DNA of 64,000 nucleotides from Nannocystis bainbridge (lineage in GTDB: Bacteria > Myxococcota_A > Polyangia > Nannocystales > Nannocystaceae): contig NZ_JAQNDL010000003.1 in NCBI RefSeq assembly GCF_028368995.1, forward strand, positions 608,001-672,000, read 5' to 3'. This document shows, in pieces, positions 3,802 through 63,127 of the stretch; the stretch's first letter is position 1, and every line of letters starts with the position of its first letter. Both the position numbers and the translations under genes were made by a program. Below the pieces are notes generated by a model. The model saw only the letters and a program-made list of their open reading frames with translations, was not told where the DNA came from and ran no database searches.

Positions 3802-3855
3802 CATGTCCCGATGGACATGTGCTCATGGCCATCCTCGGCTGTCCCCCAGGACAGC
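3802..3855. repeat. 14-bp-phased CATG motif cluster
   Basis: CATG/CATC at 3802, 3816, 3830; GCTG 3838 and CAGC 3852. Confidence 0.75.
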
Positions 3856-3873
3856 CAGTCTCCTGCCCGCCCG

Positions 3874-4575
3874 CTACCCCGGCGCGCACAGGTGCGCGCT
3901 CAGGACCGCCACTGGCTGGTCCCACAGCCGCTCGTAGGCCACGCTGAGCAGCTCGCGCGAGCGGCGGCCGCGGCGGTAGGCCGCGCGCAGGCGGCCGAGG
4001 TAGGCCCCGAAGCCGCGGACCCCGTCACGGCGGACCCGCAGCGCCGTCGAGAACACCAGCACCAGCGCGGCCGAGGGCACCCCGAGGTTGCCGAACACGA
4101 ACGCCTGCAGCTCCATCTCGCCGAGCTCGTCGGTGGAATAGCCGGTGATCACGTGGAACAGGTCGTGCGTCTCGCGGTAGCGCTTGCCGAGGTAGTCGAC
4201 GTCGTTTTCGACCGGGAACGAAGTCACGAACGGCTGGATGCCGTTGGCGCGGAAGTAGCGGACGAACTCGTGGCCGAGCGTGCCCTCGGGCAGGCGCGCT
4301 AGCGCGTCGAGGTCGAGCTCGCGCCCCTGCAGCGTCGGCCGATCGGCCAGCAGGCGCCGGCCCGGCTCGCTGTCGCGCCAGGCCCGGGCCAGCCCGCGGT
4401 ACACGTCGCTGTCCATGCACACGTTGAGCAGCGGCCCGTAGATCGGGTGGCCGGCGTCGTTCTTGAGCACGTTGAGCGCCCGCACCCCGAGCCGCAGCCG
4501 CGTCGCCAGCGACGCCCCCTCCGGCAGGCTCGGGATCGCGGTCGGCTCCTGCGGGCCTGGGGACGGCTGCTGCAT
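3874..4575 (-). CDS. COQ4-like protein
   Basis: LARLPEGTLGHEF and RYRETHDLFHVITGY...GEMELQAF match the COQ4 HDxxH-x11-E metal motif; start at MQQP chosen. Confidence 0.82.
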   Translation of the reverse strand: MQQPSPGPQEPTAIPSLPEGASLATRLRLGVRALNVLKNDAGHPIYGPLLNVCMDSDVYRGLARAWRDSEPGRRLLADRPTLQGRELDLDALARLPEGTLGHEFVRYFRANGIQPFVTSFPVENDVDYLGKRYRETHDLFHVITGYSTDELGEMELQAFVFGNLGVPSAALVLVFSTALRVRRDGVRGFGAYLGRLRAAYRRGRRSRELLSVAYERLWDQPVAVLSAHLCAPG

Positions 4576-4595
4576 GTTCTTCGGCGTAGCACAAG

Positions 4596-4611
4596 TGGAC
4601 AGTGGTGTCCA
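4596..4611. promoter_or_regulatory. Putative TetR operator TGGACA-gtgg-TGTCCA
   Basis: Perfect 6-4-6 palindrome in the short gap between the divergent COQ4-like and TetR genes. Confidence 0.6.
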
Positions 4612-4637
4612 TTTACGGATCGGCATACAGTCCCGCC

Positions 4638-5213
4638 GTGGCCGCCGACGCCCACGACTCGCCCCCCCGCCGCCGCGACGCCCAGGACAACCGCGAGCGC
4701 CTGGTCGCCGCCGCCCGCGAGGTGTTCGCCGAGAGCGGCTTCGAGGTCCCGCTCGACGCCATCGCCCGCCGCGCCGGCGTCGGCCGGGCCACGCTCTACC
4801 GCAACTTCCCCGACCGCTACGCCCTCGGCTCGGCGATCTTCGAGCACAACCTCGCCGCCCTCGAGGCGCTCGCCCGCGCCCACGCCCGCGACCCCGCGGC
4901 CTTCACCGCCCTGCTGTCCGCGATCATCGAGCAGCAGATCGCCAGCCACGCGCTCGTCCCCGCGCTGCTGAGCGGCCCGACCGCCCCCGACCTGCACGCG
5001 CTGCGCAGCCGCATGATCCGCCTGCTCGCCGGCCCCCTGCGGCGGGCCCAGGCCGCCGGCGCGATCCGCCCCGACCTGGTCTCCGCCGACGTCCTGGCCG
5101 TGATCGCCATGATCTCGGCCGCGGTCCTCCACGCCCCCTCGGTCGCCGCCCGCCGCCGCCGCGCCGCCCGGGCCCTCCAGCTCATGCTCGACGGCCTGGT
5201 CCCGCGCACCTGA
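4638..5213 (+). CDS. TetR/AcrR family regulator
   Basis: RRRDAQDNRERLVAAAREVF...DAIARRAGVGRATLYRNFP HTH; start uncertain (4602 or 4638). Confidence 0.92.
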   Translation: MAADAHDSPPRRRDAQDNRERLVAAAREVFAESGFEVPLDAIARRAGVGRATLYRNFPDRYALGSAIFEHNLAALEALARAHARDPAAFTALLSAIIEQQIASHALVPALLSGPTAPDLHALRSRMIRLLAGPLRRAQAAGAIRPDLVSADVLAVIAMISAAVLHAPSVAARRRRAARALQLMLDGLVPRT

Positions 5214-5239
5214 ATGCGCGGGCCGTGGGTCCCGATCGA

Positions 5240-5367
5240 CATGTCTGCCAGGACATGTCCCCGTGGACAGTCATCCACACGCGCTCGCTCCGAAGAACGG
5301 GCCCGACCGCCTTGACGCATCGCCTGGCGTAACATGCATGTCCTTTAAGACATGTCCTCATGACATC
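5240..5367. repeat. 14-bp-phased CATG motif clusters between convergent TetR genes
   Basis: Cores at 5240, 5254, 5268 and at 5323, 5337, 5351. Confidence 0.75.
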
Positions 5368-5463: not shown

Positions 5464-6273
5464 TCAGCGCGCCCGCCGGGGCGGCGCCGCCAGCCAGCGC
5501 GCCAGCTCCTCCGCCGCCGCCGCGAACTCGAACGCCTTGGCGTTGACCCCGAGCTGGGTCATCGCCCCCATCACGAACGACGTCACCACTCGCGCCCCCG
5601 CGGCGGGATCGAGGTCGGCGCGCAGCTCCCCGCGGGCCACCCCTTCGCGCAGCAGCTCCTCGACCATCCCGGCCCAGAACTCGTGGAGCGCGCGAAAGGC
5701 CGCCCGCGCCGACCGATCGCGCTGGCCTCGCAGCACCAGTTCCTGGAGCACTCGTCCGAGCTCGCGGTCCTCGCGGAACGACGCGCCCGCGCTCGCCAGG
5801 TGGGCCGCCAACCCCTCGCCGCCGCCGTGGCGGGCGCTCGCCGTCACGAACTTGTCGCGTACGTGGGCGATCACCGCCACTACCAGCGCCTCTTTGCTGC
5901 CGAAGTGGTAGTGCAGCGTCGAGATGTTGACCCCCGCGCGAGCCGCCACCTCGCGCGTGCGCAGGCCCTCGAGCCCGCGCTCGGCGATCGTCGCATAGGC
6001 GGCCTCGAGCAGCGCCGCTCGCCGCTCGTCCGCCCCCGGCCGCGCCCGCTCCGGCTTCGCCTTCCGCGCGCTCGCGCGAACCCCCGCGGCCTCCACCTCG
6101 ACCGCCGAACGGCGCGGCGACTTCTCAGCCCGCCGCGGCGCTGGCCCCGTCCCGGCCCGCCGCGAAGCCCTCCCCGAGGTCCCCGCCGCCGGATCGTCCG
6201 CCCCCGGCTCACGCCGCTTCGTCCCGCGCCTCGCCGTCGGCTCCCGCGCCTCCTCCTGGCCCTTCTTCGCCAT
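5464..6273 (-). CDS. TetR/AcrR family regulator with basic N-terminal extension
   Basis: REVAARAGVNISTLHYHFGSKEAL HTH; C-terminal RGELRADLD. Confidence 0.9.
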   Translation of the reverse strand: MAKKGQEEAREPTARRGTKRREPGADDPAAGTSGRASRRAGTGPAPRRAEKSPRRSAVEVEAAGVRASARKAKPERARPGADERRAALLEAAYATIAERGLEGLRTREVAARAGVNISTLHYHFGSKEALVVAVIAHVRDKFVTASARHGGGEGLAAHLASAGASFREDRELGRVLQELVLRGQRDRSARAAFRALHEFWAGMVEELLREGVARGELRADLDPAAGARVVTSFVMGAMTQLGVNAKAFEFAAAAEELARWLAAPPRRAR

Positions 6274-6393: not shown

Positions 6394-6972
6394 ATGTTGA
6401 AAGCCCTGCGCAACCGAACGATCGCCGCCGCCTTCGCCGCCTGGACCACCGCCGTGCGCGCCCGCCGGGTGCTCACGAGCCTCTTGCGCCCGCGCCTGCG
6501 CCTGCTCGATCACGTCACGATCCCCGTCGACGACCTCGCCGTCGCCCGCCGCTTCTACTGCGACGTGCTCGGCGGCGCCTTCCTGCTCGAGATCGATGCC
6601 GCCGCGCTGGCCCGGTTCGGCCGCCCGCCCGCGCCCGACGGCGGTGACGGCACCTTCCACGTCTCGGTCTACCTCGGCGGCGCCACCCGCATCGACCTGT
6701 TCCTCCAGCGCGACGGCCAGCCCGCCCCGCTGCGCGGCCACCCGCACTACGCCTTCCGCGTGACCCCGCGCGACCTGCTGCGCTTTCAGGACCGCCTCCG
6801 CGCCCACGGCGTCCCGACCGAGGGCCCGCTGCAGCTCGGCTTCCCCGGCCAGGCCTCGCTCTACTTCAACGACCCCGCCGGCAACCTGCTCGAGCTGACC
6901 TGCACCGGCTTCCCGCGGGCGATCCCCGTGCGTCCGCCCGACCTCACCGGCCTCGCCTGGACCCCCGCGTGA
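6394..6972 (+). CDS. VOC/glyoxalase family protein
   Basis: LDHVTIPVDDLAVARRFYCDVLG, HYAF and LYFNDPAGNLLEL motifs; GGAGGA RBS at 6385. Confidence 0.88.
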   Translation: MLKALRNRTIAAAFAAWTTAVRARRVLTSLLRPRLRLLDHVTIPVDDLAVARRFYCDVLGGAFLLEIDAAALARFGRPPAPDGGDGTFHVSVYLGGATRIDLFLQRDGQPAPLRGHPHYAFRVTPRDLLRFQDRLRAHGVPTEGPLQLGFPGQASLYFNDPAGNLLELTCTGFPRAIPVRPPDLTGLAWTPA

Positions 6973-7000
6973 GCCGCCGCAGAGTCATCTATCCCTCGGT

Positions 7001-7055
7001 ACATGTCCTCTCGAACATGCCCATCGAGACATGCTCTTCAGAGCATGTCCCGAAC
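7001..7055. repeat. 14-bp-phased CATG array (4 cores)
   Basis: CATG at 7002, 7016, 7030, 7044 between convergent genes. Confidence 0.85.
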
Positions 7056-8906
7056 TTATTTCTTGAGCCCGCGGTACTTGAAGCCGATCGTCAGCTCCTC
7101 GTCGAGCGCCAGCAACTTCTCGAAGTGGACCTCGCGGCCCTGCAGCGGCAGGCTGACCGGCACCGGCATCGCCCCGTCGCCGAGCGACCCGCCCGGGGCC
7201 GCCTGCTCCCGCGCGTTCTCCATCACCTGCGGCGTCGCCGTCTGCACGTAGTTCATGTCCTCGGCCGGGATCGGGTTCGAGAGGTAGCGGACCTTGCGGA
7301 GGTTGCCGTCGATCGACAGGCGCTTGATCTTGGCGTCGTCGGGCGCGTACACGGTCCAGGCCACGTACGTGCTCGGCGCGTCGGCCCGCGGCAGCGTCGC
7401 CGCGAATTGCCCGCGGCCGTTGCCAGCCGGCGGCGCCCCGTTCTCGACGTACACGATCTCGACCTCGAACGCCGCCAGCTCGCCGCCCGCCGCCTGCGAG
7501 CGAACCAGCGGGATCATCACCCGCTTGTCGGCCGCCAGGGCCGGCTGGACCGCGCGCCCGCCGACCGACGCGCTCCACAGCTCGCCGCCCTTCGGCAGGG
7601 CCAGGCGCAGGAATTGGCGCCGGTTGTTGCGGATCCGGTACTTCACCGAAGTAAGGCGCCGACCCTCGCGGGTCCACATCGTGCGCGCGCGCGTCTCGTC
7701 GAGCAGCGTCACCAGCACGTCGGCGTCGACGTGCTGCCACGCGCTCAGCGGGATGCTGACATCGGTGCCGAGGTACTTGTAGCCGAGCAGCACCGGCTGC
7801 CCGGTGATGCCGAGGATCGCCGCCGGCAGCGCGCGCACGTCGACCGGCGTCGCGCCCTTGACGTCGCCGGCGTCGACCTCGAGGTTGCCGCGCGACTCGA
7901 CCCCGACGAACCCGCGCGTGCGCTCGACCCCGACCGGCACCGGCACCGGCGCGGCGATGTCCTTGATGTCGCCGCGCACCACCTTCTCCATCTCGATGCG
8001 CAGCGCGTAGGCCCCCTTGGCCGCGTAGTTGAGCTGGACCGCGAGGTTGCCCTCGCCGTCGACCTTCCACTCGCGCACGCCGGCGCCGACCACGTCGAGC
8101 ACCGTCATGTCCTTGGGCACCTTGAGCGCCAGCTTGTCGACGCCGGTGAAAAGGATCGTGTACTGCGCGGTGGTGGTCGCGCGCATGAGCCCCTCGCCGA
8201 GGCTGACCAGCGTGTAGACCTCGCTCAGCACCCGGCTGGCCTGCTGCGCCGCCTTCGGCAACTCGCGCTGCCACTTGACCTCGAGCGCCCCCGTCGACGG
8301 CAGCACCGCCTCGACCACCCGCTTGTCGCCGACCACCTTGTCCGACTGCAGCTTGGCGCCCGCGACCGTGAAGTCGAGGTCCTCGCGGGCCGGCACCGAC
8401 AGCACCGCCGAAGTCGCGCCGGCCGGCGACAGCTGGAACGACACCGCCGACGAGCCCTCCGCCGTGGTCACCGCCGCCGCGAACGTCACGTCGAGGTTGA
8501 GCGCCCCGCGCTGCTGCGTCACGAGCACGTAGTGCCCGTCCTCGATGACCACCGCCGCCTCGGCGTTGCCGATCTTCGCCGACTCGAGCGCCACCGTCGC
8601 CGGCAAGAACGGCACCTTGACGAAGCCCTTGGCCCGCAGCACCTCGACCCTGAACCTGGCCTTGAAGACAGCCGCGTACGGCTCGCCGTCCTTGACCTGG
8701 ACCTCGCCCTCGTAGCGGGCCGACGACAGCGCGTAGTCGAGCGGCGCCGTCGTCTCCTCCGCCCGGGTCTTCTCGTACAGCTTGAGGAACTCGTCGAGCT
8801 TCATCACCACCCGCTCTGGGTCGTCGGGCGCGGCCGCGGCGGTGACGGGCGACAGGGACAACAAGGTGACGAGGGCGATCGCTGGGCTGCGCATGACTGG
8901 GTTCAT
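7056..8906 (-). CDS. Uncharacterised secreted protein (616 aa)
   Basis: Signal peptide; beta-rich; strong GC3 bias; paralogous to the upstream 905-aa ORF. Confidence 0.8.
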   Translation of the reverse strand: MNPVMRSPAIALVTLLSLSPVTAAAAPDDPERVVMKLDEFLKLYEKTRAEETTAPLDYALSSARYEGEVQVKDGEPYAAVFKARFRVEVLRAKGFVKVPFLPATVALESAKIGNAEAAVVIEDGHYVLVTQQRGALNLDVTFAAAVTTAEGSSAVSFQLSPAGATSAVLSVPAREDLDFTVAGAKLQSDKVVGDKRVVEAVLPSTGALEVKWQRELPKAAQQASRVLSEVYTLVSLGEGLMRATTTAQYTILFTGVDKLALKVPKDMTVLDVVGAGVREWKVDGEGNLAVQLNYAAKGAYALRIEMEKVVRGDIKDIAAPVPVPVGVERTRGFVGVESRGNLEVDAGDVKGATPVDVRALPAAILGITGQPVLLGYKYLGTDVSIPLSAWQHVDADVLVTLLDETRARTMWTREGRRLTSVKYRIRNNRRQFLRLALPKGGELWSASVGGRAVQPALAADKRVMIPLVRSQAAGGELAAFEVEIVYVENGAPPAGNGRGQFAATLPRADAPSTYVAWTVYAPDDAKIKRLSIDGNLRKVRYLSNPIPAEDMNYVQTATPQVMENAREQAAPGGSLGDGAMPVPVSLPLQGREVHFEKLLALDEELTIGFKYRGLKK

Positions 8907-14962: not shown

Positions 14963-15202
14963 TCCTGCGCCAGGCTACCACGTCGCCGCCCCACCGGTGA
15001 GTTGTCACCTTACCCACATATCACACCTTAACTTACCAAACCCGCCAAACGCCCCTGCGACCGCCTGGAGGCCCGAATCGGCAGCATCACCCCTTCATCA
15101 AACTCGCCCGCGACACCCACGGCCAGCCACGAGGCGCGACCCCCGACCCGCCCGTCGAGCGCCGAGAGTACAGTCGAAAATTACCGGCGAGATCCAAGAG
15201 TA

Positions 15203-15290
15203 CATGCTCGAAAGGACATTACCTCGAGAACATGTCTATCATAACATTTCCCCAAAGACATGCCCTCGAAGACATGTCCTTATGACCTTA
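15203..15290. repeat. 14-bp-phased CAT array (6 cores)
   Basis: CAT at 15203, 15217, 15231, 15245, 15259, 15273. Confidence 0.85.
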
Positions 15291-15370: not shown

Positions 15371-17581
15371 TCACCGGTCGCCCACGCACACCGCCGCCCC
15401 GTGCCACGGCGTGCAGCGCCCGTGCGCGCACGGGTTGTCCGCGTCGCACGGCGAGAAGCAGGCGTTGCTGGCGAACGCGTGCACCTGTCCTTCTGGACAC
15501 ATCGGTGCGAACAGCGGATCATGGCGCACGCACCCCAACAGCGCCTCGCACCCGTCCTTCACCTTCGCCGCCTGCCCCGCCTTGCACACGGCATACAGCG
15601 CGGGGTCGCCCCACATCGCGTCGCACGTGTCGCAGCCGCACAGCTCGTCCGGCGGCTGCGTGAACGTCAGCCGCCGCTCCGGCTCGTCCCGCAGCGCCAC
15701 CACCTCCGTCACCAGCCGCGCCCCCTGCCAGCGGATCCGCAGCTCGCCCGCCCCGTCGAGCCGGTGCAGCTTCGCGGTCAGCGGCGCGCCGATCGCCAGC
15801 GGCGTCACCAGCGTCATCCCCGTCGCCGTCGTCATCCGCATCGCCGCCGGCGAGCCGCCCTCGATCACCTCGATCTCGCGCACCGGCTCGACATCGTCGG
15901 CGGCCGACAGCCGCAGCTTGAGCCACCCGCCGAGCTGCTGCACCGTGCCCGTCGCCCACGCCGCTTCGCCGAGCTCGACCGCCTGCGCCCCGTCCCACGC
16001 CAGCTGCGTCGGCGCGTAACGCATCCCTTCGGGCAGGCCCGGCGCGGGCACCGGCGGCGGAAGTGGCCGCGCCAGCCGCTCGCCCAGCGCCTCGGCCAGC
16101 GCCGCGTGCCCGCGCGCCGTCATGTGGATGTCACGATCGAGGAACGCCCCCGGCTGGGCCGCGCGCAGGGCCGCGGTCGCGTCGAAGCTGCGGATCCGCA
16201 GGTCCTCCGCGTTCGCCACCAGGTCACCGAGCAGCACCTGCGACGGCCGCATGTCGGGCCCCTGCTCGACCCCGTACTTGGCCCACTCGCCGGCGTCGAC
16301 CTGCACGTCGAACGGCAGCGCCACCACCACCAGCTCCGCCCCGTGCGCCGCGCACAGCGCCTTGAACTCGGCCAGGTACGCCGCGAACACCGACTGCGGC
16401 CGCGACCGCGGCGCGCTGCGCTCCAGCTCGGCCAGCACCGCCTCGCGCGAGTCGACCAGCGTCGCCGCGGCCGCCTGCAGCTCGCGCAGCCGGGCCGCCT
16501 GCTGTTTGGCGAACTTGCGCTGCTGCTTCTTGTAGTCGTCGCGCCGCGCCACTGCCTCGCGGATCAGCTCCGCCGTCACCTCGAGCGACCGCCCGCTCTC
16601 CGCCAGCTTCTCGTTGCTGACGATGTCACCCGGCCGACCCGCCGCGATCTGCTGCCAGAACTCCGACGGCTCGGCATACAGCAACTCGTCCTCCAGCGCC
16701 CGCAGCTGGTCTCGCTGCTCGCGCAGCGGCTGACCGAGCGCGTCGACCTGCGCGCGCGAGGCCCCGCGCCGCACCTCGTGCTCCGCCGCCACCGCGGCCT
16801 GCTGCGCCTGCGTAAGCACGCTCGCGTGCACGAGGTCCTGCCAGCCGCCCTCCGACGGCGTCCCCGGATCGAGCGGCCGCCCCCCCGCGTCGTCGCTCTC
16901 GGGCGCGCCCGCCGAGCCGCGCGCGTGCAGCCACCGGCGCACCGCGTACACCGCGTGCGAGCGCGACATCAGCCATGCGCGCCCCGGGAACTGCGGCATC
17001 TCGGCGGGCGCCGTCTCGCGGCGCACCGCCCAGCCGTCCCACACCGCGTGGCGCTCGGTGTTCGGCCGCTCGAGCTCGAACGGATCGTTGACGAAGTTGA
17101 GCACCACCACCACCGTCGCCGGCTTGCGCGACGTCAGCAGCTCGCGCGCCACCTCGAGGTACTCGCGCGGCCCGTAGGTCGGCACCCCCGCGTTGATCAC
17201 CGGCCGACCTGTCCTTTCGGCCAGCCCCACCGAGAACGTCTCGTCGTCCGCGACCCCGAGCCCGAACACCTGCGAATCGCCGACCACCACGATCTCGCCC
17301 GCCTGCGGCGCCGGCCACTCGGGCCCGCGGTAACCGCTGGCATTGACGTGAATCGAGGTCCGCGGGTTGGGCGGCAGCCGGAACTCCATCGCCGCCCCCG
17401 GCTGCAGCCGCACCCCGAGCTGCGGATCGGCGACATAGAAATTCACGTGCGGAAATGCCCACTCGTCGCGCATCGCGAATGCGCACTCGGTGGCCACCAG
17501 CCCCAGCCCCAGCCCGACCGCGATCTGGCCCGCGATCACGAGCCTTCGACGACGAACAGCGGGGCGCGGATCGGTGGCCAT
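15371..17581 (-). CDS. SGNH/AlgX-like hydrolase or acetyltransferase with Cys-rich C-terminus
   Basis: GDSQVFG block I, NAGVPTYG block II, FVND, DIHMTARGH (DxH); N-terminal TM. Confidence 0.8.
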   Translation of the reverse strand: MATDPRPAVRRRRLVIAGQIAVGLGLGLVATECAFAMRDEWAFPHVNFYVADPQLGVRLQPGAAMEFRLPPNPRTSIHVNASGYRGPEWPAPQAGEIVVVGDSQVFGLGVADDETFSVGLAERTGRPVINAGVPTYGPREYLEVARELLTSRKPATVVVVLNFVNDPFELERPNTERHAVWDGWAVRRETAPAEMPQFPGRAWLMSRSHAVYAVRRWLHARGSAGAPESDDAGGRPLDPGTPSEGGWQDLVHASVLTQAQQAAVAAEHEVRRGASRAQVDALGQPLREQRDQLRALEDELLYAEPSEFWQQIAAGRPGDIVSNEKLAESGRSLEVTAELIREAVARRDDYKKQQRKFAKQQAARLRELQAAAATLVDSREAVLAELERSAPRSRPQSVFAAYLAEFKALCAAHGAELVVVALPFDVQVDAGEWAKYGVEQGPDMRPSQVLLGDLVANAEDLRIRSFDATAALRAAQPGAFLDRDIHMTARGHAALAEALGERLARPLPPPVPAPGLPEGMRYAPTQLAWDGAQAVELGEAAWATGTVQQLGGWLKLRLSAADDVEPVREIEVIEGGSPAAMRMTTATGMTLVTPLAIGAPLTAKLHRLDGAGELRIRWQGARLVTEVVALRDEPERRLTFTQPPDELCGCDTCDAMWGDPALYAVCKAGQAAKVKDGCEALLGCVRHDPLFAPMCPEGQVHAFASNACFSPCDADNPCAHGRCTPWHGAAVCVGDR

Positions 17582-19700: not shown

Positions 19701-20180
19701 ATGACCACCGACAAGCGCAACACCCCGATCGTCGCCGCCGAGGCCGCGCCGCGCGTGCGGCCCAGCGTCTACCCGCCCGAGTTCGCCCGCCGGGTCGAGG
19801 GCCGGATCAAGCGGCCGCTCGGCGACCTGTTCGGCCTCGTCAACTTCGGCGTCAACCACACCCGCCTGTCGCCCGGCTCGTGCAGCGCGCTGCGGCACGC
19901 CCACACCCGCCAGGACGAGTTCGTCTACGTGCTCGAGGGTCGCCCGACCCTCGTCACCGACGCCGGCGAGTTCGAGCTCGAGCCTGGCATGTGCATCGGC
20001 TTCCCGGCCGGCTCCGGCGAGGCGCACCACATCCTCAACCTCACCGAGCACGACGTCGTCCTGCTCGAGGTCGGCGACCGCAGCCCCGGCGACGCCGTCA
20101 GCTATCCGACCGACGACCTCGTCGGCATCTTCGAGAACGGCCGCTGGCATTTCACCCGCAAGGACGGCTCGGCCTACTGA
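19701..20180 (+). CDS. Cupin domain protein
   Basis: GLVNFGVN...SALRHAH..QDEFVYVLEG...AHHILN. Confidence 0.92.
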   Translation: MTTDKRNTPIVAAEAAPRVRPSVYPPEFARRVEGRIKRPLGDLFGLVNFGVNHTRLSPGSCSALRHAHTRQDEFVYVLEGRPTLVTDAGEFELEPGMCIGFPAGSGEAHHILNLTEHDVVLLEVGDRSPGDAVSYPTDDLVGIFENGRWHFTRKDGSAY

Positions 20181-41513: not shown

Positions 41514-41523
41514 GCCCTTCGCG

Positions 41524-46859: not shown

Positions 46860-47020
46860 CGATCGGGACATGCCCCCCGGCGCATCGAGGATCAGGTCAC
46901 CCGCGAGGTGACGACCACCGCAAGATCGTCCAAGTACGTCGCCGGGCGCCGTCGTAGGCTCGATCGAACATGCTCGATCGGACATGCCCGATCGAGCATG
47001 CCCGGAAGAACATGTCCCGA
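46855..47020. repeat. 14-bp-phased CATG arrays
   Basis: Cores at 46855, 46869, 46883 and at 46969, 46983, 46997, 47011. Confidence 0.82.
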
Positions 47021-50260: not shown

Positions 50261-50295
50261 GGCGGAGAGCTCAGGCCGCGACGGGCGGCAGGTGG

Positions 50296-50428
50296 CATGT
50301 CCGCGAGGACATGGCGAATGGGACATGCGCGAAAGCGCAGCTCACGAGGGGCCGCTGCGGGGGAGCGTCGGCCTCGCTCGCGGCTGGCCGCGAGGACATG
50401 GCGAAAACGACATGTCCGAAAGAACACT
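50296..50428. repeat. 14-bp-phased CATG arrays between moxR and DUF58
   Basis: Cores at 50296, 50310, 50324, 50338 and at 50383, 50397, 50411, 50425. Confidence 0.8.
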
Positions 50429-50493: not shown

Positions 50494-51504
<1,011 letters not shown>

Positions 51505-52684: not shown

Positions 52685-53857
<1,173 letters not shown>

Positions 53858-53858: not shown

Positions 53859-53932
53859 CCTGGCTCTCGCGGCATGTCCGTGAGGGCATGAACCAAGGGA
53901 CATGCCCGTTCGGGCATGTCCCTTGATGCACG
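53859..53932. repeat. 14-bp-phased CATG array (6 cores)
   Basis: Cores at 53859, 53873, 53887, 53901, 53915, 53929. Confidence 0.88.
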
Positions 53933-53959: not shown

Positions 53960-55093
53960 TCAGCGGTCCTCGCGGATCCGCCGGGCCAACTCCTCGTGCT
54001 CCGGGTACGGCGGCACGATCACCTCCGGCTCCGGCGCGCGCAGGGCCTCGGGCGCCGCGAACAGATCGGCGACCAGCCCGGGCGCCGCCTTCGGCTTCGC
54101 CGGCCCGAGCACCCGGTCGCGGTGGCGCGGCGCGTAGGCCTGCTTGAGCGCGACCACCCGCCGCAGCGCCGGCTCGACCAGCGCGTCGGGCAGGTGCTCG
54201 AGCAGGCGCAGCGACTCGTCGCGGAGATCGGCCTTGCTGCACACCAGCAGCGCGTCGAGCCCGGCCTCGAGGCTCCAGCGGACCCGCTGCTCCGGGGTGA
54301 AGTGATCGGCGACCGCCTTCATCTCGAGGTCGTCGCTGAACACCACCCCGTCGTAGCCGAGCTCGCCGCGCAGCAACTGCATCACCGGCGGCGACAGGGT
54401 CGCCGGCCGCTTGCGGTCGAGCGCCTCGAACAGCACGTGGGCCGACATGACGCTGGCGACCCCGGCCTTGGCCGCGGCGGCGAACGGGACCAGCTCGACC
54501 TCCCGCAGGCGGTCGAGATCGTGCGGCAGGCGGGGCAGCTCGAGGTGGCTGTCGGAGCGAGTGTCGCCGTGCCCCGGGAAATGCTTGGCGCACGCGGCCA
54601 CCCCGGCCCCCTGCATCGCCGTGACGAAGGCCGCGGCGTGGCGGGCCACCCGGGCCGGCTCGGCCGCGAAGCTGCGATCGCCGATCACCGGGTTGGCCGG
54701 GTTGGTGTCGACGTCGACCACCGGCGCGAAGTCGAGGCCGATCCCGAGGTCGGACAGCTCACGCGCCAGCGCCTCGGCCACCGCCGCCGTGGTCGTCGGC
54801 TCGTCGCGCCGCCCGAGCGCTCGCATCGGCGGCCACACGGTCCAGGGGGCCTTGAGGCGCTGAACGCGCCCTCCCTCCTGATCGATGCCCACCAGCAGCG
54901 GCACGTCCGGCGGGGCCGCCTCGTGCAGCGCACGCACCAGCCCGCGCAGCTGCGCCGGACCTTCGATGTTGCGAGCGAAGAGGATCACGCCGCCGATCCG
55001 GCCCTGGCCGAGCAGGCGGGCGAGATCCGGCGGGACCGTCGTCCCCTCGAAGCCGACGAACAAGAGCTGACCGGGCTGCCACCACGACGCCAT
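53960..55093 (-). CDS. nagZ: Beta-N-acetylhexosaminidase (GH3)
   Basis: GGVILFARN, DQEGGRVQR, KHFPGHGDTRSDSH, SDDLEM. Confidence 0.95.
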   Translation of the reverse strand: MASWWQPGQLLFVGFEGTTVPPDLARLLGQGRIGGVILFARNIEGPAQLRGLVRALHEAAPPDVPLLVGIDQEGGRVQRLKAPWTVWPPMRALGRRDEPTTTAAVAEALARELSDLGIGLDFAPVVDVDTNPANPVIGDRSFAAEPARVARHAAAFVTAMQGAGVAACAKHFPGHGDTRSDSHLELPRLPHDLDRLREVELVPFAAAAKAGVASVMSAHVLFEALDRKRPATLSPPVMQLLRGELGYDGVVFSDDLEMKAVADHFTPEQRVRWSLEAGLDALLVCSKADLRDESLRLLEHLPDALVEPALRRVVALKQAYAPRHRDRVLGPAKPKAAPGLVADLFAAPEALRAPEPEVIVPPYPEHEELARRIREDR

Positions 55094-55271: not shown

Positions 55272-57419
55272 ATGCCGACCTCTCCGTTTTCGCGGCCACA
55301 CCGCCTCTTCTGGCTGATCCCGGCCTTCGGCCTCGTCAACCTGTTCAACGGTTCTTCCACCGCGCACGCGCAGGGCCCCATGGGCGGCGGCATGGGCATG
55401 GGCGGAGGAGGCATGGGCGGCATGGGCCCGATGGGCGGCGGCGGCATGCCGGGCCAGGGCGGCCAGGGCGGCGACAAGAAGAAGGAAGGCCCCGCCGAGG
55501 CGGCGCCGAAGGACAAGAAGGCGCTGCAGCCGATCGAGCCGGTGCCGGCGCAGCCCCGCGGCCTGCGGCAGCTGCAGCTGTTCGAGCTGCACGGCTACAT
55601 GCGCATGCGCGCCGACTACTTCCACCGCCTCGACCTCGGCGGCGGCAAGAGCAACCAGTCGACGATCGGCACCAACTACGCCGACAACGCCGCGCTCGAG
55701 AACCCGTACTTCGTGCCGCCGTCGGTCGCGGCCGAGACGGTCGGCGGCTTCGGCGAGGGCGCGACCGCCAGCGACGTCAACTGCGTCGGCTCGCTGACCG
55801 GCCTCGGCATCAACGCCAGCAAGGCCAGCCGCCGCTGCGGCCGCCGCAACGGGTTCGCCAGCGCCAACATGCGCTTCCGCATCGAGCCCACGCTGCACAT
55901 CACCGACACCGTCAAGGTCCACGCGCAGCTCGACGCGCTCGACAACATGGTCCTCGGCAGCACGCCGGACTCGCTGCTCGGCGACAACCCCAACGCGCCG
56001 ATCGACCTGTTCACGCGCACCCAGCTGCCGCCGTCGGACATGCGCAACAGCGGCCGCGACAGCATCGTCGTCAAGCGCGCGTACGGCCACATCCGCTTCG
56101 GCTGGGGCCTCGACATCAAGTTCGGCCGCATGCCGCACCACTGGGGCATGGGCATCGTCGCCAACGACGGCAACGGCTACTACCGTGGCGAGGCGGCCGA
56201 CATCGTCCGCATGCTCGACATGGACTACGGCGACTCGGTCGACTCGCTGCGCCTCGGGTTCGACTTCGGCAAGGACCGCCGCAGCACCCACACGCTCGAG
56301 TTCTCGTGGGACTGGGCCTCGAGCGGCCCGACCACCGCGCAGATCTTCGGCCCGTACTACGGCCCGTACCAGCAGGACCACACCACCGGTCAGACCTTCA
56401 GCGTCGAGAAGTTCGACAACGTCTATCAGTGGCGCCTGTCGATCCTCCGCCGCGACGACCCGGCCATGCTGCAGCGCAAGCTGTCGCTCGGGCGCCCGGT
56501 CATCAACTACGGTGCGATCGTGTGGGCCCGTTACCAGGCGGTCGACCGCGTCACCGGCACCCCCGGCATCGGCATCGACCCCCAGCAGAACGACATCTAC
56601 GGCTCCGACATCGGCAGCTCGGGCAACCAGTACTACGACCAGCTGCAGGACTACGCCAACGTCCTGGTCCGCCGGCGCGCGCTGGTGTTCACGCCCGACG
56701 TGTGGTTCCGCGTCAACTGGAAGACCCTCCGCGTCGAGCTCGAGGGCGCCGCCGTGCTCGGCCGGTTCCATGAGATCAACGACCGCGGCGCGTTCGACAT
56801 CTCGCAGGGCAACGACCGCGACGACGTCTATACGATCAACGGCCCCGACATGGGCCGCCGCTGGCTGACCCAGTTCGGCTACGCGCTCGAGTTCAAGTAC
56901 GGCCTGTTCAAGGACAAGTTCCACCTCGGCCTCGACCACGGGTTCGCCTCCGGCGACAACGACCCGCGGTTCCGCTACAACACCCCGTGGAACTCGAACC
57001 TCGACGATCGCACGTGGTCGAAGTTCCGCTTCAACCCGGCCTACTTCTCCGACCTGCTGCTGTTCCGCGAGCTGCTCGGCACCGCCAGCAACGCCGCGTA
57101 CTTCAAGCCCTGGCTGGCGTTCTACTTCTTCGACAACAACTTCTCCGGCCGCCTCGACATCGAGTACGCCGTCGCCCCCCAGAAGATCAACACGTGGGGC
57201 AACAAGGCCAACTACGGCCTCGAGATCGACGCGGCGTTCCGCTACCACGACCGCCAGGAGCCGATCTTCTTCCAGATCCAGTACGGCGTGATGTTCCCGT
57301 TCGGCGCGTTCAACCGCGGCGTCGAGTACAGCCCCGACGGCACCCTCGCCGGCCTGCCCAACAACGGCGACCCCAAGGCCGCCCAGACCGTGCAAGCCCA
57401 GCTCGGCATCCGCTTCTAG
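55272..57419 (+). CDS. Outer-membrane beta-barrel protein, TIGR04551-like
   Basis: Signal peptide, Gly/Met linker, ANMRFRIEP, DALDNMVLGSTP, GRMPHHWGMGI, FRFNPAY..DLLLFR, C-terminal Phe. Confidence 0.82.
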   Translation: MPTSPFSRPHRLFWLIPAFGLVNLFNGSSTAHAQGPMGGGMGMGGGGMGGMGPMGGGGMPGQGGQGGDKKKEGPAEAAPKDKKALQPIEPVPAQPRGLRQLQLFELHGYMRMRADYFHRLDLGGGKSNQSTIGTNYADNAALENPYFVPPSVAAETVGGFGEGATASDVNCVGSLTGLGINASKASRRCGRRNGFASANMRFRIEPTLHITDTVKVHAQLDALDNMVLGSTPDSLLGDNPNAPIDLFTRTQLPPSDMRNSGRDSIVVKRAYGHIRFGWGLDIKFGRMPHHWGMGIVANDGNGYYRGEAADIVRMLDMDYGDSVDSLRLGFDFGKDRRSTHTLEFSWDWASSGPTTAQIFGPYYGPYQQDHTTGQTFSVEKFDNVYQWRLSILRRDDPAMLQRKLSLGRPVINYGAIVWARYQAVDRVTGTPGIGIDPQQNDIYGSDIGSSGNQYYDQLQDYANVLVRRRALVFTPDVWFRVNWKTLRVELEGAAVLGRFHEINDRGAFDISQGNDRDDVYTINGPDMGRRWLTQFGYALEFKYGLFKDKFHLGLDHGFASGDNDPRFRYNTPWNSNLDDRTWSKFRFNPAYFSDLLLFRELLGTASNAAYFKPWLAFYFFDNNFSGRLDIEYAVAPQKINTWGNKANYGLEIDAAFRYHDRQEPIFFQIQYGVMFPFGAFNRGVEYSPDGTLAGLPNNGDPKAAQTVQAQLGIRF

Positions 57420-57668: not shown

Positions 57669-57731
57669 TCTGTCCCTCGCGCCATGTCCCTCGCGACATG
57701 TCCCGCGCGACATGTTCTAAAAAGACACAGG
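57669..57731. repeat. 14-bp-phased CATG array abutting the radA start
   Basis: Cores at 57669, 57683, 57697, 57711. Confidence 0.82.
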
Positions 57732-57735
57732 TCCC

Positions 57736-59124
57736 ATGAGCAAGGTCAAAAAGCCCCAGCAGCGCTGGGTGTGCCAGGCGTGCGGCGCGGTCTCGTCCGG
57801 GTGGTACGGCAAGTGCCCGGCCTGCGACGCCTGGAACTCGATCGAGGAGGAGGTCGCGGCCCCGTCGCCCGGCGAGCGGCCGGCCGGTCCGGGCAAGGTG
57901 GTGGCCTCGACGGAGGCGCAGACGATCGTCGACCGCCAGCCCCGCCGCCCGTGCGGCCTGCAGGAGATCGATCGGGTCCTCGGCGGCGGTCTGGTCCCCG
58001 GCAGCGTGGTGCTGCTCGGCGGGCCGCCGGGGATCGGCAAGTCGACGCTGCTGCTGCAGGCCTCGGTCGGGCTCGCGCGGCGCAACGGCGTCGTGCTCTA
58101 CGCCAGCGGCGAGGAGTCGGTGGCCCAGGTCGCGTCCCGCTGCGGTCGCCTCGGCGCCAGCCACCCGGGCCTCCTGCTGATGGCCGAGACCCGCCTCGAA
58201 GAGATCTTGAGCACCGCCCAGGAGCGCGCCAAGACCCTCGCCGCCCTCATCGTCGACTCGGTCCAGACCGTGCACAGCGGCGCCCAGGACGGCCTGCCGG
58301 GCAACATCAGCCAGATCCGCGCCGTCACCTCGGCCCTGGTCGGCTTCGCCAAGACCCACGGCGTCCCCGTCGTCGTCGTCGGCCACGTCACCAAGGACGG
58401 CCAGCTCGCCGGCCCGCGCCTGCTCGAGCACCTGGTCGACGCCGTGCTCTCGTTCGAGGGCGACGAGGAGCGGGCGATCCGCATGCTGCGGGCCACCAAG
58501 AACCGCTACGGCAGCACCCAGGAGCTCGGCGTGTTCGAGATGCGCGGCGACGGCCTGCGCGAGATCACCAACCCCTCCGAGGCCTTCATCACCGACCGCG
58601 ACAGCCCCGCGATCGGCTCGTGCATCACCGCCAGCCTCGAGGGCTCGCGCCCGCTGCTGCTCGAGGTCCAGGCGCTGCTGGCCGCCGCGTTCGGCAACCC
58701 GCGCCGCACCTGCGTCGGCGTCGACCCGGTCCGCCTCGCCATGCTGCTCGCCGTGCTCGACCGCCACGCCGGCGTGTTCGCCCTCGACCAGGACGTGTTC
58801 GTCAACGTCGTCGGCGGCATGCGCCTCGGCGAGCCCGCCAGCGACCTCGCGGTCCTGCTCGCCGTCGCCTCCTCGCACCGCCGCCAGCCGCTCCCGCCCG
58901 GCCTGTGCGTGTTCGGCGAGGTCGGCCTCACCGGCGAGCTGCGCCCCGCGCCTCGCACCGACGCTCGCCTGTCCGAGGCCGCCCGCCTGGGCATGAAGCG
59001 GGTGCTCCTTCCGACAGGTCCCAAACAACATGCCCTTTCGGCCAGGAAGCTGAAAGAGCAGCTCGACGTCGAGGTCCGCCTGGCCCGCACCGTCGGCGAG
59101 GCGCTCGATCTGGCGTTCAGCTGA
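57736..59124 (+). CDS. radA: DNA repair protein RadA/Sms
   Basis: CxxC..W.GKCxxC zinc finger, GPPGIGKSTLLLQ, DSVQT, KNRYG, Lon-like C-terminus GEVGLTGE. Confidence 0.97.
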   Translation: MSKVKKPQQRWVCQACGAVSSGWYGKCPACDAWNSIEEEVAAPSPGERPAGPGKVVASTEAQTIVDRQPRRPCGLQEIDRVLGGGLVPGSVVLLGGPPGIGKSTLLLQASVGLARRNGVVLYASGEESVAQVASRCGRLGASHPGLLLMAETRLEEILSTAQERAKTLAALIVDSVQTVHSGAQDGLPGNISQIRAVTSALVGFAKTHGVPVVVVGHVTKDGQLAGPRLLEHLVDAVLSFEGDEERAIRMLRATKNRYGSTQELGVFEMRGDGLREITNPSEAFITDRDSPAIGSCITASLEGSRPLLLEVQALLAAAFGNPRRTCVGVDPVRLAMLLAVLDRHAGVFALDQDVFVNVVGGMRLGEPASDLAVLLAVASSHRRQPLPPGLCVFGEVGLTGELRPAPRTDARLSEAARLGMKRVLLPTGPKQHALSARKLKEQLDVEVRLARTVGEALDLAFS

Positions 59125-60496: not shown

Positions 60497-61939
60497 ATGT
60501 CCGGCGCACCCGAGCTCTACGACATCTACGAGCGCTCCAACGAGGCCGTCACCCAGGAGTTCGACGTCCGCCTCCCGCTGTGCGAGGGCGCCGTCCCCGA
60601 CGAGCTGCGCGGCGTGTTGTTCCGCAACGGCCCCGGGCGGCTCGAGCTGTACGGCCATCGCTACGGGCATTTGTTCGACGGCGACGGGCACATCAACCGC
60701 TTCGCCTTTGACGGTCGTGGGGTCACCTACCGCAACCGCTACGTCCGCACTCGCGAGTTTCTCGCCGAGGAGTCGGCCCGGCGGATCCTCTTTCGCAACT
60801 TCGGCACCAACATCCCCGGCGGCCTGCTGAAGAACCTCCTGCGCACCCGGTTCAAGAACGTCGCCAACACCAGCGTCGTCCTCCACGGCGGCAAGCTGCT
60901 CGCGCTGTGGGAGGCCGGCTGGCCGCACCGGCTCGACCCCGGCAACCTCGACACCCTCGCCCGCGACGACCTCGGCGGCGCCCTGGAGAACCCCGGCAGC
61001 TTCATCGAGCGCATGGTCGCCCCCGAGCTGCCGTTCAGCGCCCACCCCAAGGTCTGCCCCGTCACCGGCGAGCTCTTCAATTTCGGCCTGGCCGCCACCG
61101 GCACCCGCTCGCGCCTGTGCCTCTACCGCGTCGACGCCAGCGGGCGGGCCGCCCGGCCCGAGTTCATCGACCTGCCGGGTGGTTACTTCATCCACGACTT
61201 CGTGCTGACCGCCCGCCATCGCGTCTTCTTCCTCACGCCGACCGCCTTCGACCTGCGCAAGATGCTGCTCGGCCTGGCGCCGCCGGTGCAGACCATGCGC
61301 GCCCTGCCCGGGCCGACGCAGATCCTCGTCGTCGACCGCGACAGCACCGCGCACCGCCGCACCGAGACCAGCGGCTGCTTCATCTTCCACTTCCCCAACG
61401 GCTTCGAGGACGAGCACGGCACGATCTTCGTCGACGGCTTCCGCATGCAGCGGTTCCCCGACCTCAACCCGCGGCCCGACCGGCCCGAGGATCACGTCAA
61501 GCCGTACCTCACGCGCTACCGCATCGACCCGGACGGCGGCGTCAGCGAGCAGACGCTCACCGATCACACCGGCGAGCTCGGCACGATCCGCCAGGACCGC
61601 ATCAGCCGACGCCACCGCTACGCCTGGTCGATCGGCTCCGCCCCCGGCCGCAAGGCCCCGTTCTCGACCGGTCTCCTCAAGATCGACTGCGACGCCGCCA
61701 CCACCACGTTCCGCGACTTCGGCCCCGCCCTCGCCGGCGAGCCGGTGTTCGTGCCCCGCCCCGGAGGCGCCGACGAGGACGACGGCTGGCTGCTGTCGAT
61801 GCACTACGTCGACGACGAGCGCGCCAACCACCTGCTGGTCCTCGACGCCCGCGACCTCGCCACCGTCGCCCGCCTGCGCTTGCCCCACGCCACGCCGCTC
61901 GGCTTCCACGGCACCTTCGTGGCCGACGCCGAGGACTGA
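60497..61939 (+). CDS. Carotenoid oxygenase (RPE65/CCD family)
   Basis: RNGPG, HLFDGDG, FSAHPK, IHDF, FHF.N, GEPVFVP, EDDGWL, GFHG (four His). Confidence 0.95.
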   Translation: MSGAPELYDIYERSNEAVTQEFDVRLPLCEGAVPDELRGVLFRNGPGRLELYGHRYGHLFDGDGHINRFAFDGRGVTYRNRYVRTREFLAEESARRILFRNFGTNIPGGLLKNLLRTRFKNVANTSVVLHGGKLLALWEAGWPHRLDPGNLDTLARDDLGGALENPGSFIERMVAPELPFSAHPKVCPVTGELFNFGLAATGTRSRLCLYRVDASGRAARPEFIDLPGGYFIHDFVLTARHRVFFLTPTAFDLRKMLLGLAPPVQTMRALPGPTQILVVDRDSTAHRRTETSGCFIFHFPNGFEDEHGTIFVDGFRMQRFPDLNPRPDRPEDHVKPYLTRYRIDPDGGVSEQTLTDHTGELGTIRQDRISRRHRYAWSIGSAPGRKAPFSTGLLKIDCDAATTTFRDFGPALAGEPVFVPRPGGADEDDGWLLSMHYVDDERANHLLVLDARDLATVARLRLPHATPLGFHGTFVADAED

Positions 61940-61948
61940 CGCTTCGGA

Positions 61949-62010
61949 CATGCCCTCGAGGACATGCCCTTTCGCGCATGTCCGTGCGGGCATGTCCCCT
62001 GCGACATGCC
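61949..62010. repeat. 14-bp-phased CATG array (5 cores)
   Basis: Cores at 61949, 61963, 61977, 61991, 62005. Confidence 0.88.
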
Positions 62011-62064
62011 TCGAAGACGACCCGGGCGCGCGCCCTCGCGCTCGTTAGGAAAAGACGACGGTCG

Positions 62065-62934
62065 TCACAGCAGCGGCCGCAGGTGCTCGCGGGCCCACGC
62101 GTCCAGGCTCGTCGGCGTCGTCGTCGCCGCGGTCCTTCGATCTTCGGCGACGAAGCCCTCGCGCATCCCGGCCGCCATGCCGACGATCGCCTCGATCTGC
62201 GGCTTCGACATGCCGGCCTGCGCCAGCGCGGCGCGGACCTCGTCGTCGGAGCTCTGGACCGCCGCGATGCGCCGGCCCAGCGCCTGCGACAGCACGCCCG
62301 CCGCCTCGACGAAGCTGAGGTCGCGCGGGCCGTGGACCGCCTGCACCTGGCGGCCGGTCCACGTCGTCGAGAGCAACCGCGCCGCCGCCACCTCGCCGAT
62401 GTCGCGCGGATCGACCCACGGCAGCGGGCGATCGATCGCCATCGCGGTCGCCAGCACGCCGCCGCGGAGCGACTCCACCTCGAGCAGCAAGTTGGTGAAG
62501 AAATAGCCGCAGCGCAGGTGCGTGACCGCCACGCCGAGCCCGTCGAGCGCGACCTCGGTCGCGGCCAGCCCGTCGATGTCGCCCATCCCGTGGCGCCTCT
62601 CGGCGCCGACGCTCGACTGGAAGACCACGCGCGGGATGGCGTTCTCCCGCACCGCGCGGACCAGGTTGGCGGCCAGCCGCGCGTAACCTTCGAGCGGGTC
62701 GTCGGCGCCGGTCGGCGGCGCCACCCAGTACAGCGCCGTCGCGCCCCGCGTGGCGGCGACGACGGCGTCGGCGTCGAGTTGGTCGGCCTCGACGACCTCG
62801 ACCCGCTCGCGCAGCGCGGCGTCGATGCGGGCGGCGCTGCGCACCAGCACCCGGGGTCGTTCGCCGGCCTGGACCAGCAGGTGGGTCACGCGCGAGCCGA
62901 CATGCCCGGTCGGCGTGGTCACGACGATGCTCAT
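62065..62934 (-). CDS. NmrA family NAD(P)-binding protein
   Basis: VVTTPTGHVGS, SSVGA, LRCGYFFTN, VDPRDIG. Confidence 0.9.
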   Translation of the reverse strand: MSIVVTTPTGHVGSRVTHLLVQAGERPRVLVRSAARIDAALRERVEVVEADQLDADAVVAATRGATALYWVAPPTGADDPLEGYARLAANLVRAVRENAIPRVVFQSSVGAERRHGMGDIDGLAATEVALDGLGVAVTHLRCGYFFTNLLLEVESLRGGVLATAMAIDRPLPWVDPRDIGEVAAARLLSTTWTGRQVQAVHGPRDLSFVEAAGVLSQALGRRIAAVQSSDDEVRAALAQAGMSKPQIEAIVGMAAGMREGFVAEDRRTAATTTPTSLDAWAREHLRPLL

Positions 62935-62943
62935 GGCGCTCCC

Positions 62944-63127
62944 CTCTCTGTCTCTTGGGTCATGTCACAGACCGCACGGCGCGACGCGCCGTACTGTCTC
63001 TCGGGTCATATCACCGACCGCACAGCGCGACGCGCCGTGCTGACTCTTAAGCCATGCCGCCGCCCGCACGGCGCGGTGACTCTCTCTGTCTCTTGGGTCA
63101 TGTCACCGCCCGCACGGCGCGACGACC
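62944..63127. repeat. About 46-bp tandem repeat x4 (ctgtctcttgggtcatgtcac...cgcacggcgcgacg)
   Basis: Four imperfect copies between the recA 3' end and the NmrA gene start. Confidence 0.82.

Follow-up and report, generated by a model that had tools for sequence, protein, structure and literature searches.

Phased CATG palindromes at gene ends in Nannocystis: a lineage-specific 14-bp lattice that may act as REP/BIME-like 3'-end hairpins

Why should one tetranucleotide recur at exact 14-bp steps behind gene after gene? The question is raised by a 64,000-nucleotide stretch of Nannocystis bainbridge DNA (the window; NZ_JAQNDL010000003.1, positions 608,001 to 672,000, or C2:608001-672000 in our contig numbering), part of an 11.05-Mb genome in five contigs (C1-C5) with 71.5% G+C, in which CATG cores stand in phased runs, here called arrays. 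An earlier note on the window had taken this lattice for an undescribed DNA-binding or chromosome-architecture system. We propose, with a probability of about 0.5, that it represents a lineage-specific family of small palindromic repeats that function as 3'-end hairpins, in the manner of repetitive extragenic palindromic (REP) sequences and bacterial interspersed mosaic elements (BIMEs), and that have a putative sequence-specific partner.

The lattice itself is real. Among the 280 CATG of the window, 44 pairs lie at a lag of 14, with 27, 17, 8 and 6 at lags 28, 42, 56 and 70, and every other lag from 1 to 99 holds 0-6 pairs; in 100 dinucleotide-preserving shuffles CATG-N10-CATG occurs 0.64 times on average (standard deviation 0.80, maximum 3), and none reaches 44. 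The 39,940 CATG of the genome give 3,736, 2,073 and 1,586 pairs at lags 14, 28 and 42, the peaks that the earlier note had expected, against about 100 at neighbouring lags (72 at lag 13, 262 at lag 15). Units were detected genome-wide with a 10-bp weight matrix at a threshold of 6 bits and joined into chains at exact 14-bp steps, with one missing unit tolerated. The aligned units define a 14-bp module made of a 10-bp palindrome, GGRCATGYCC, and 4 further bases that are weakly AT-enriched and otherwise free; the weak palindrome described before is thus confirmed, around an almost invariant CATG. In total the genome holds 1,030 doublets and 916 arrays of at least three units, the latter comprising 307 with three units, 281 with four, 217 with five, 86 with six, 19 with seven and 6 with 8-11.

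In the window, 23 chains contain at least two exact CATG in phase, two of which resemble chance or another repeat (45362-45404, and 55379-55421, a GGCATGGGC coding repeat). The six arrays cited before are as they had been described, with the one-base variant cores CATT (15217, 15245), AATG (37907) and CCTG (31343, 53859); besides the 23 exact-CATG chains there is at least one CCTG array (32773-32824), and the accompanying figure of more than 30 loci depends on counting variant cores. Rfam covariance models reach their gathering score in the window for two tRNAs only, and no family matches the arrays. The motif also appears undescribed: we found no account of it in the literature on bacteria, and nothing relevant in that on Nannocystis and Myxococcus repeats, supplementary material being outside the scope of both searches. 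The junction sequence GGACATGTCC (956 copies in the genome) does occur in the literature, where the matches listed are p53 half-sites or other eukaryotic or viral sequences; it fits the p53 half-site consensus RRRCWWGYYY literally, a coincidence of sequence to which we attach no biological link.

Where do the arrays lie? Genes were called with a codon model trained on long high-GC3 frames (7,774 genes); of ten window proteins scanned, seven match Pfam, five of them over nearly the full domain model, which is consistent with the gene calls. The 916 arrays comprise 492 in convergent intergenic regions (of 1,416 such regions), 320 in tandem regions (4,300), 30 in divergent regions (1,438) and 74 inside called genes, the divergent regions having the largest total length. 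Counted by region, at least two phased units are present in 654 of 1,293 convergent (50.6%), 581 of 3,750 tandem (15.5%) and 109 of 1,437 divergent regions (7.6%). Arrays of 2-7 modules, and up to 11, stand directly behind stop codons: the distance from stop to first unit has its mode at 10-14 nt and is 5-19 nt in 461 of 1,304 cases, and within tandem regions the median interval is 20 nt from the upstream stop to the array and 205 nt from the array to the start that follows. They fill much of the convergent space, covering a median of 41% of such regions and in several extending from stop to stop. Genes followed by arrays also have a higher codon score than the others (0.541, n = 1,224, vs 0.490, n = 6,325; p = 8e-30).

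This placement is that of a gene-end element and not of segregation or nucleoid-occlusion sites. The earlier note had likened the lattice to parS, matS, Noc, SlmA or RacA sites, and short palindromic 14-bp sites absent from Rfam and from the literature searched would suit such a chromosome-positioning role. However, those systems use from a few to some tens of sites, restricted to one chromosomal region or kept out of it, and 916 arrays and 1,987 strict copies of the dyad TGTCC-N4-GGACA far exceed such numbers. Every one of the five contigs carries arrays, a full 250-kb bin holding 4-41 of them; C3 has them to either side of the point where its GC skew switches, and they track gene ends and not chromosome regions. 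The distribution already contradicts the analogy, and we regard this explanation as very improbable. The skew is itself strong, at -0.02 to -0.10 along C1, C2 and C5 and positive on C4 as well as on C3, until the sign changes there at about 1.5-1.6 Mb, probably at an origin or a terminus.

What might such an element do at gene ends? As REP/BIME-like repeats, the arrays would be transcribed as the final part of the mRNA and, because every module is self-complementary, could form a strong hairpin, or several, on either strand, and these would set or protect the 3' ends of both converging transcripts. They might do so through factor-assisted, hairpin-dependent termination without a U-tract, or by blocking 3' exonucleases after Rho-dependent termination, as E. 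coli REPs do. Folding alone does not account for a CATG that hardly varies, for the exact phase or for the abundance of dyads inside genes; these suggest a sequence-specific partner, which could be a protein whose target is either the hairpin RNA or the DNA.

The likeness to REPs is extensive, in spite of the earlier note's contrast of the lattice with classical REP hairpins. According to the part of a REP survey available to us (PMC3733652), REPs lie downstream of genes between convergent or unidirectional open reading frames, contain G·T pairs and have some intragenic copies; proposed roles include termination, mRNA stability and supercoiling, with the G·T pairs of the stems suggesting a role at the RNA level. 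The Nannocystis arrays share the location, the hairpin potential, the G·T pairs on the transcribed strand and the occasional intragenic copies, and they form regular clusters of hairpin-forming palindromes in high copy number (the totals above far exceed the 100 copies per genome that mark REPs). Of the earlier interpretation as a whole, then, the lattice, the palindrome and the conservation of core and phase stand, and the chromosome-site analogy and the contrast to REPs are not supported. The architecture nonetheless differs. The Nannocystis module is 14 bp long as against 20-40 bp for a REP, and its core is a perfect-type palindrome; a pair of modules yields a 10-14-bp stem closed by a 4-nt loop (24-32 nt), a modular arrangement in place of a single 20-40-bp unit, and the modules abut in exact phase, leaving loops of only 4 nt. 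The sequence core is also conserved far more than the pairing, and the dyad is enriched about 40-fold in coding sequence without disrupting the frame, which transposition cannot produce.

The evidence that points to RNA comes from asymmetry between strands. In tandem arrays oriented by transcription, G·T mismatches outnumber A·C mismatches (197 vs 121), an excess that holds on both gene strands against a composition-based expectation with replication skew allowed for (p = 0.0017 and 0.0013), and the 5' R position is G in 461 units against 329 for its mirror position (p = 3e-6), while the spacers are strand-symmetric. This sense-strand G/T asymmetry, present in stems and not in spacers, points to RNA. 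Folding potential is high as well: eight arrays folded individually all gave z-scores from -3.5 to -8.2, and 400 arrays sampled from the 916 have a mean folding energy of -28.9 kcal/mol against -15.4 kcal/mol for shuffles. Canonical hairpin-plus-T terminators are not enriched between 40001 and 60000 of the window (4 vs 3.9 in shuffles). At one orthologous site, moreover, a distant genome carries a T8 terminator where the window genome has an array. That site, in a distant same-genus assembly (L006:6015-6065, after a ThiF-like gene), holds a classical GC hairpin with T8 and no CATG array; there and at L007:11340-11400, also after a ThiF-like gene, single TGTCY-N4-GGACA dyads stand with CAGG-cored neighbours, again with no CATG array.

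A number of observations weigh against the REP-like reading. The arrays fold well because every unit is self-complementary, and their mean energy is barely better than that of unit-permuted arrays (-28.5 kcal/mol) or of units drawn from the pool (-27.2 kcal/mol), so almost all of the folding strength comes from the consensus itself and selection on pairing is weak; complementarity among the units of an array is likewise no higher than among random units. At the R/Y pair of the dyad, T..A accounts for 1,987 cases, C..A for 381, T..G for 314 and C..G for 146 (85.7 expected): covariation within the genome exists but is weak, the mispaired C..A exceeding C..G, and the base just outside the dyad is paired in 1,066 of 1,987 copies against 899 expected. 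Comparison between species adds little, with 12 double changes at paired positions against 9.4 expected relative to the same-genus genome G010, seven of which keep a pair, and with an unfavourable, positive covariation term (+1.08) from RNAalifold on five sequences of the ThiF-like locus. Nor is a run of T available for classical termination, which the absence of a U-tract makes unlikely: T4 or longer follows within 14 nt downstream in 1.6% of the 320 tandem arrays. Among 102 tRNA genes only 3 are followed by an array at up to 300 nt, so the array is not a general terminator. Hallmarks of REPs are also missing, in that the REP tags GTAG and CGTC occur in 0.5% and 5.3% of the 14-nt array flanks (n = 1,832), and that no RAYT (Y1 transposase, PF01797) was found in the window genome, which is 90.5% complete, by a search that matches 6 of 14 control genomes. 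A pure RNA-hairpin model, moreover, leaves 456 intragenic dyads unexplained, and the codon-model caller behind the placement counts under-calls genes (77-82% coding), its starts being approximate and its stop codons exact.

Seen as terminators, the arrays thus have the hairpin of a canonical intrinsic terminator and lack its immediate U-tract. They share with the U-tract-less hairpin terminators of GC-rich bacteria a GC-rich 3' hairpin with no run of T behind it, here at a genomic G+C content of 71.5%, and differ from them in having one conserved sequence in common. In the available part of PMC3993855, mycobacterial RNA polymerase is argued to need a U-tract, so a hairpin alone may not terminate; a particular family of conserved terminators in mycobacteria, looked for in that paper, was not found in it.

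How old are the arrays, and which parts of them are kept? We compared the window genome with 1.2 Mb of G010, of which 901 kb aligned at 90.2% identity; 96 arrays were anchored on both sides and 85 were collinear and usable. Of these 85, the orthologous site holds two or more phased units for 68 and three or more for 54. Over the 27 arrays that aligned without gaps (103 units; the 58 others, with internal gaps, were excluded), identity is 0.98, 0.93, 0.91 and 0.98 for the four bases of CATG, 0.78 and 0.79 for GG, 0.77 and 0.83 for CC, 0.66 for R, 0.73 for Y and 0.53-0.57 for the spacers, against 0.74 for other intergenic DNA, all per-position values being upper bounds because the aligner can favour CATG on CATG. 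The anchored, gap-free ThiF case shows the same pattern, and across six sequences of that locus every CATG and the 14-bp phase are kept at a mean column identity of 59%. The claim that spacing is kept better than sequence or pairing therefore holds, for cores and phase, both within the genome and between species. Phase and core are conserved far better than pairing, as a sequence-specific recogniser predicts, and the combination of invariant core and phase, free spacer and weak covariation points to such a partner.

Surveying related genomes, as had been suggested, places the family in one genus. Phased pairs (RCATGYCC-N4-GGRCATGY) number 640 in the window genome and occur in all ten other genus genomes, with 321-448 in five of 12-13 Mb and 1-42 in five smaller assemblies. 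Eight other genera of the family have 0-4, 12 other families of the class have none, and 300 further genomes of the phylum are at chance level, five with one match each against six for a reversed control. Arrays occupy the same intergenic sites in five named Nannocystis species, which makes them old, and are absent there from distant 'Nannocystis sp.' assemblies and from other Nannocystaceae. They evolve through point drift and through whole modules being gained or lost. Metagenome contigs of relatives (shares of at most 0.18; four compared) break in intergenic DNA and say nothing about 3' ends.

Could the arrays be a functionless by-product, tandem duplications made by slippage from a persisting palindrome? 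Some arrays do contain near-identical neighbouring units or 14-, 28- or 42-bp blocks, which indicates that local duplication adds units, and adjacent spacers are slightly more alike than random ones (0.311 vs 0.271). Most units of an array, however, are no more similar to one another than random units are (0.42-0.48, direct or reverse-complement, vs 0.43). Slippage also sits badly with the extreme placement bias and with phased orthologous counterparts for four-fifths of the usable arrays at about 10% divergence, in which CATG is 91-98% kept and the spacers 53-57%. We consider this explanation as implausible as chromosome positioning. A weak 42-bp super-period is present genome-wide, in that units three apart are the most similar (0.478, vs 0.45 for other steps and 0.43 at random) and that CATGTCC pairs are more frequent at lag 42 (182) than at lag 28 (169); several arrays are visibly 42-bp duplications. 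The spacers comprise 189 different 4-mers among 1,058, and the idea that they form standard tetraloops was rejected, neither GNRA nor UUCG being dominant.

The same conservation can be read at the level of DNA. A dimeric protein might recognise TGTCC-N4-GGACA or GGRCATGYCC and polymerise in 14-bp register at gene ends, as a transcription roadblock, an insulator, or a handle for a topoisomerase or nucleoid protein where convergent transcription piles up supercoils, with the intragenic dyads as weak, non-cooperative sites. We think this possible, if distinctly less probable than the REP-like reading. The conservation profile, falling from CATG to the spacers, resembles a recognition code; at the ThiF locus CATG and phase are invariant in six species as the flanks change; half-sites vary almost independently, and the units of an array look as if each had been drawn separately from a single consensus. 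A 5-N4-5 geometry is one that helix-turn-helix dimers typically recognise. ATGT-N8-ACAT would resemble PadR operators and CTGT-N8-ACAG LexA boxes, likenesses to which we give no weight. A parallel is offered by the operator arrays to which small repressors bind cooperatively, such as the met boxes of MetJ, the heptads of omega repressor and the ParR centromeres, for they too consist of short palindromic or repeated units, about 2-10 of them directly adjoining at a constant period, with spacing mattering more than the intervening bases; those arrays, however, lie at a few promoters or centromeres, and the Nannocystis arrays at hundreds of gene ends. On the other side, a roadblock or nucleoid site need not lie 10-15 nt past a stop, given some 200 nt of free space in tandem regions, and the sense-strand asymmetry in stems speaks for RNA. 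The full form of this idea, which we hold a shade more tentatively still, is that the lattice is the track of an abundant sequence-specific protein that covers hundreds of gene ends as an in-register polymer, three units to every four helical turns, and makes up a protein-based terminator, insulator or supercoil-management system peculiar to Nannocystis for which the thousands of intragenic dyads would be low-affinity sites. It would then be a sequence-addressed nucleoid protein that marks gene ends.

Searches for the partner have produced no candidate, a result that counts against the DNA-level explanation. None of the ten window proteins scanned belongs to a DNA-binding family. Looking for autoregulation, we found 66 genes in divergent regions whose 150 bp of upstream DNA contain a dyad or an array, and no family recurs among them (clusters of four and two); five small array-preceded genes in divergent regions encode a GST, a metallophosphoesterase, a NUDIX protein and two proteins without Pfam matches.

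The single dyad has a wider distribution than the lattice and a different bearing on these explanations. TGTCC-N4-GGACA is found 1,987 times in the genome, against 3 for a reversed control, and is twice as frequent as the junction GGACATGTCC. Deep inside genes (more than 150 nt from either end, in 5,337 well-scoring genes totalling 5.73 Mb) it occurs 456 times, as against 8-14 in four synonymous-codon shuffles, an enrichment of about 40-fold, and 1-2 in two codon-order shuffles. Intragenic dyads as a whole use all three frames (339/183/49 of 571) and rare codons, are spread along genes, and are four times rarer in the best-adapted quartile (30 vs 120 per Mb). In the comparison with G010, full conservation is seen for 43 of 69 intragenic dyads, whereas the 1,380 matched control windows reach 43% (p = 0.002), and the loop is less conserved. 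Enrichment in frame cannot come from insertion of an element, and requires selection or drive on point changes. For a DNA-level lattice, the enrichment and conservation of intragenic dyads with a less conserved loop would be expected of binding sites, although their scarcity in well-adapted genes fits tolerated by-products equally well. Copies number 114-2,090 in all 11 genus genomes, including those with few phased pairs, 87 and 161 in two sister genera, and 0-7 elsewhere, and the dyad is older than the lattice. One cluster, at C3:586331-586670, packs seven strict dyads into 340 bp of a single well-scoring gene, several of them 21 bp apart and five fully conserved in the relative; it may reflect a repeat in the protein, with the dyad spelled out by its codons.

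Point changes under drive call to mind DNA uptake. The half-site word CATGTCC, with its complement, might be favoured by a bias in DNA uptake or recombination and accumulate where tolerated, in permissive codons and, packed inverted, in terminator hairpins, the lattice being the densest inverted packing with minimal 4-nt loops. As described in the available part of a survey of uptake sequences (bioRxiv 10.1101/2025.10.24.684340), these words form clade-specific dialects with genic and intergenic copies that accumulate in permissive regions, about half of the copies lying within predicted terminators and inverted pairs being mostly in terminators. Within that compass, the published genomic signature is strikingly similar to ours, and the Nannocystis word resembles the DNA uptake sequences (DUS) of Neisseriaceae and the uptake signal sequences (USS) of Pasteurellaceae in being clade-specific and over-represented, genic and intergenic, inverted in 3' hairpins and rarer under strong coding constraint. 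The genus-wide dyad, weaker in two sister genera and all but absent elsewhere, its enrichment over synonymous shuffles, its reading-frame bias and its scarcity in well-adapted genes would all fit, as would 3,806 copies of CATGTCC against 300 of the reversed word, 1,005 of them without partner context. Yet known uptake sequences are 9-12-nt non-palindromic words without phased arrays of up to 11 units, and the Nannocystis element is palindromic and phased, with a short half-site; bare TGTCC, at 12,351 copies, is near a rough composition estimate, made by hand, of about 10,600. ComEC and DprA are present, which is uninformative since both are also found in 10-11 of 14 control genomes. We judge an uptake-like drive improbable, though less so than slippage or chromosome positioning.

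The REP/BIME-like reading, if correct, bears on a poorly understood matter, namely how transcripts end and are protected in GC-rich bacteria with few classical terminators: one 14-bp module, in at least two phased units, occupies half of the convergent intergenic regions of an 11-Mb genome. The unusual constraint, with invariant CATG, exact phase and free spacers, lets mutants separate an RNA-hairpin role from protein recognition. By combining REP traits with those of uptake sequences (in-frame intragenic enrichment, genus restriction), the family could inform the origin of genome-wide words, and as marks of gene 3' ends the arrays could help in annotating Nannocystis genomes, a target of natural-product mining.

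The arrays of the window illustrate the range of placements. Several lie between convergent genes: a four-unit array at 6999-7050 nearly fills the region between 6394-6972 (+) and 7056-8894 (-), another at 36834-36885 fills that between 36276-36833 (+) and 36900-37529 (-), and two adjacent perfect two-unit hairpins at 41451-41516 (-51.8 kcal/mol, z = -8.2) fill that between 40581-41444 (+) and 41524-42354 (-). One convergent region holds two doublets, at 5237-5260, 24 nt past the stop of 4638-5213 (+), and at 5334-5357, on the side of 5464-6096 (-). Six units at 31354-31433 (z = -6.8) stand 33 nt past the stop of 30359-31321 (+), four at 46966-47017 lie 9 nt from the stop of 47026-49143 (-), and five at 61946-62011 (z = -5.8) begin 7 nt past the stop of the RPE65-family gene 60497-61939 (+), all three in convergent regions. 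The four units at 53870-53921, 13 nt past the stop of the ThiF/rhodanese gene 52685-53857 (+), are separated by 39 nt from that of the GH3 gene 53960-55093 (-); their orthologues in five named Nannocystis genomes retain CATG and phase.

Elsewhere, four CATG units and one CAAG unit at 27351-27416 follow the stop of the chemoreceptor gene 25290-27344 (+) by 7 nt and form a nested hairpin of -49.1 kcal/mol (z = -4.2), and a doublet at 34265-34288 overlaps the stop of 32938-34272 (+). Behind genes on the minus strand lie a doublet at 3799-3822, 52 nt downstream of the stop of 3874-4575 (-); six units (four CATG, two CATT) at 15200-15279, downstream of the stop of 15371-17539 (-), with z = -4.8; seven units (six CATG, one AATG) at 37862-37955, downstream of the stop of 38158-38976 (-), with z = -3.5; and, downstream of the stop of 50494-51456 (-), three units at 50293-50330 and a doublet at 50394-50417, the latter at 77 nt. 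The two tRNA genes that are the sole Rfam matches of the window, 20299-20385 (-) and 21423-21496 (+), both have a three-unit array nearby: that at 20192-20229 lies 12 nt past the stop of 19701-20180 (+) and faces the 3' end of the first, and that at 21669-21706 is 176 nt downstream of the second. A doublet at 49628-49651 falls within the predicted gene 49256-50221 (-), which also contains a single conserved dyad at 49943. Three units at 57680-57717, between 55272-57419 (+) and 57736-59124 (+), are nearer the downstream start and so form an exception to the stop-proximal rule.

Direct, non-palindromic arrays with a CCTG or CAGG core (GACCTGTCCC; GGACAGG/CCTGTCC) share the 14-bp period. The window has one on the plus strand at 32773-32824, 3.7 copies of GACCTGTCCC with a CCTG core, 21 nt past the stop of 32060-32752 (+). 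Genome-wide there are 73 such chains of at least two units, mostly doublets, of which 33 are in tandem regions, 28 in genes, 6 in convergent and 6 in divergent regions. Those in tandem regions show no orientation bias (19 vs 14), and 8 of their 10 positions still pair. Where the relative has a CAGG array at one orthologous site, the window genome has CATG units. A further CCTG-cored relative of the unit, GGACCTGTCCCTCGGACCAGC, is held by each copy of a 630-bp tandem-repeat block (27477-28107; periods of 50, 148 and 43-59 bp) that directly follows the array at 27351-27416, between the chemoreceptor gene and the next called gene.

Two other repeats lie in the window. Five copies of a 62-bp tandem repeat (93% matches) occupy the intergenic DNA after 34931-35866 (+), at 35847-36150; the repeat has an inverted repeat of its own (GGTGTCTC...GAGACACC) and is unrelated to the CATG lattice. 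At 1434-1641, in-frame tandem repeats of 15 and 45 bp (about 10 copies) lie within the called gene 1330-2520 (+).

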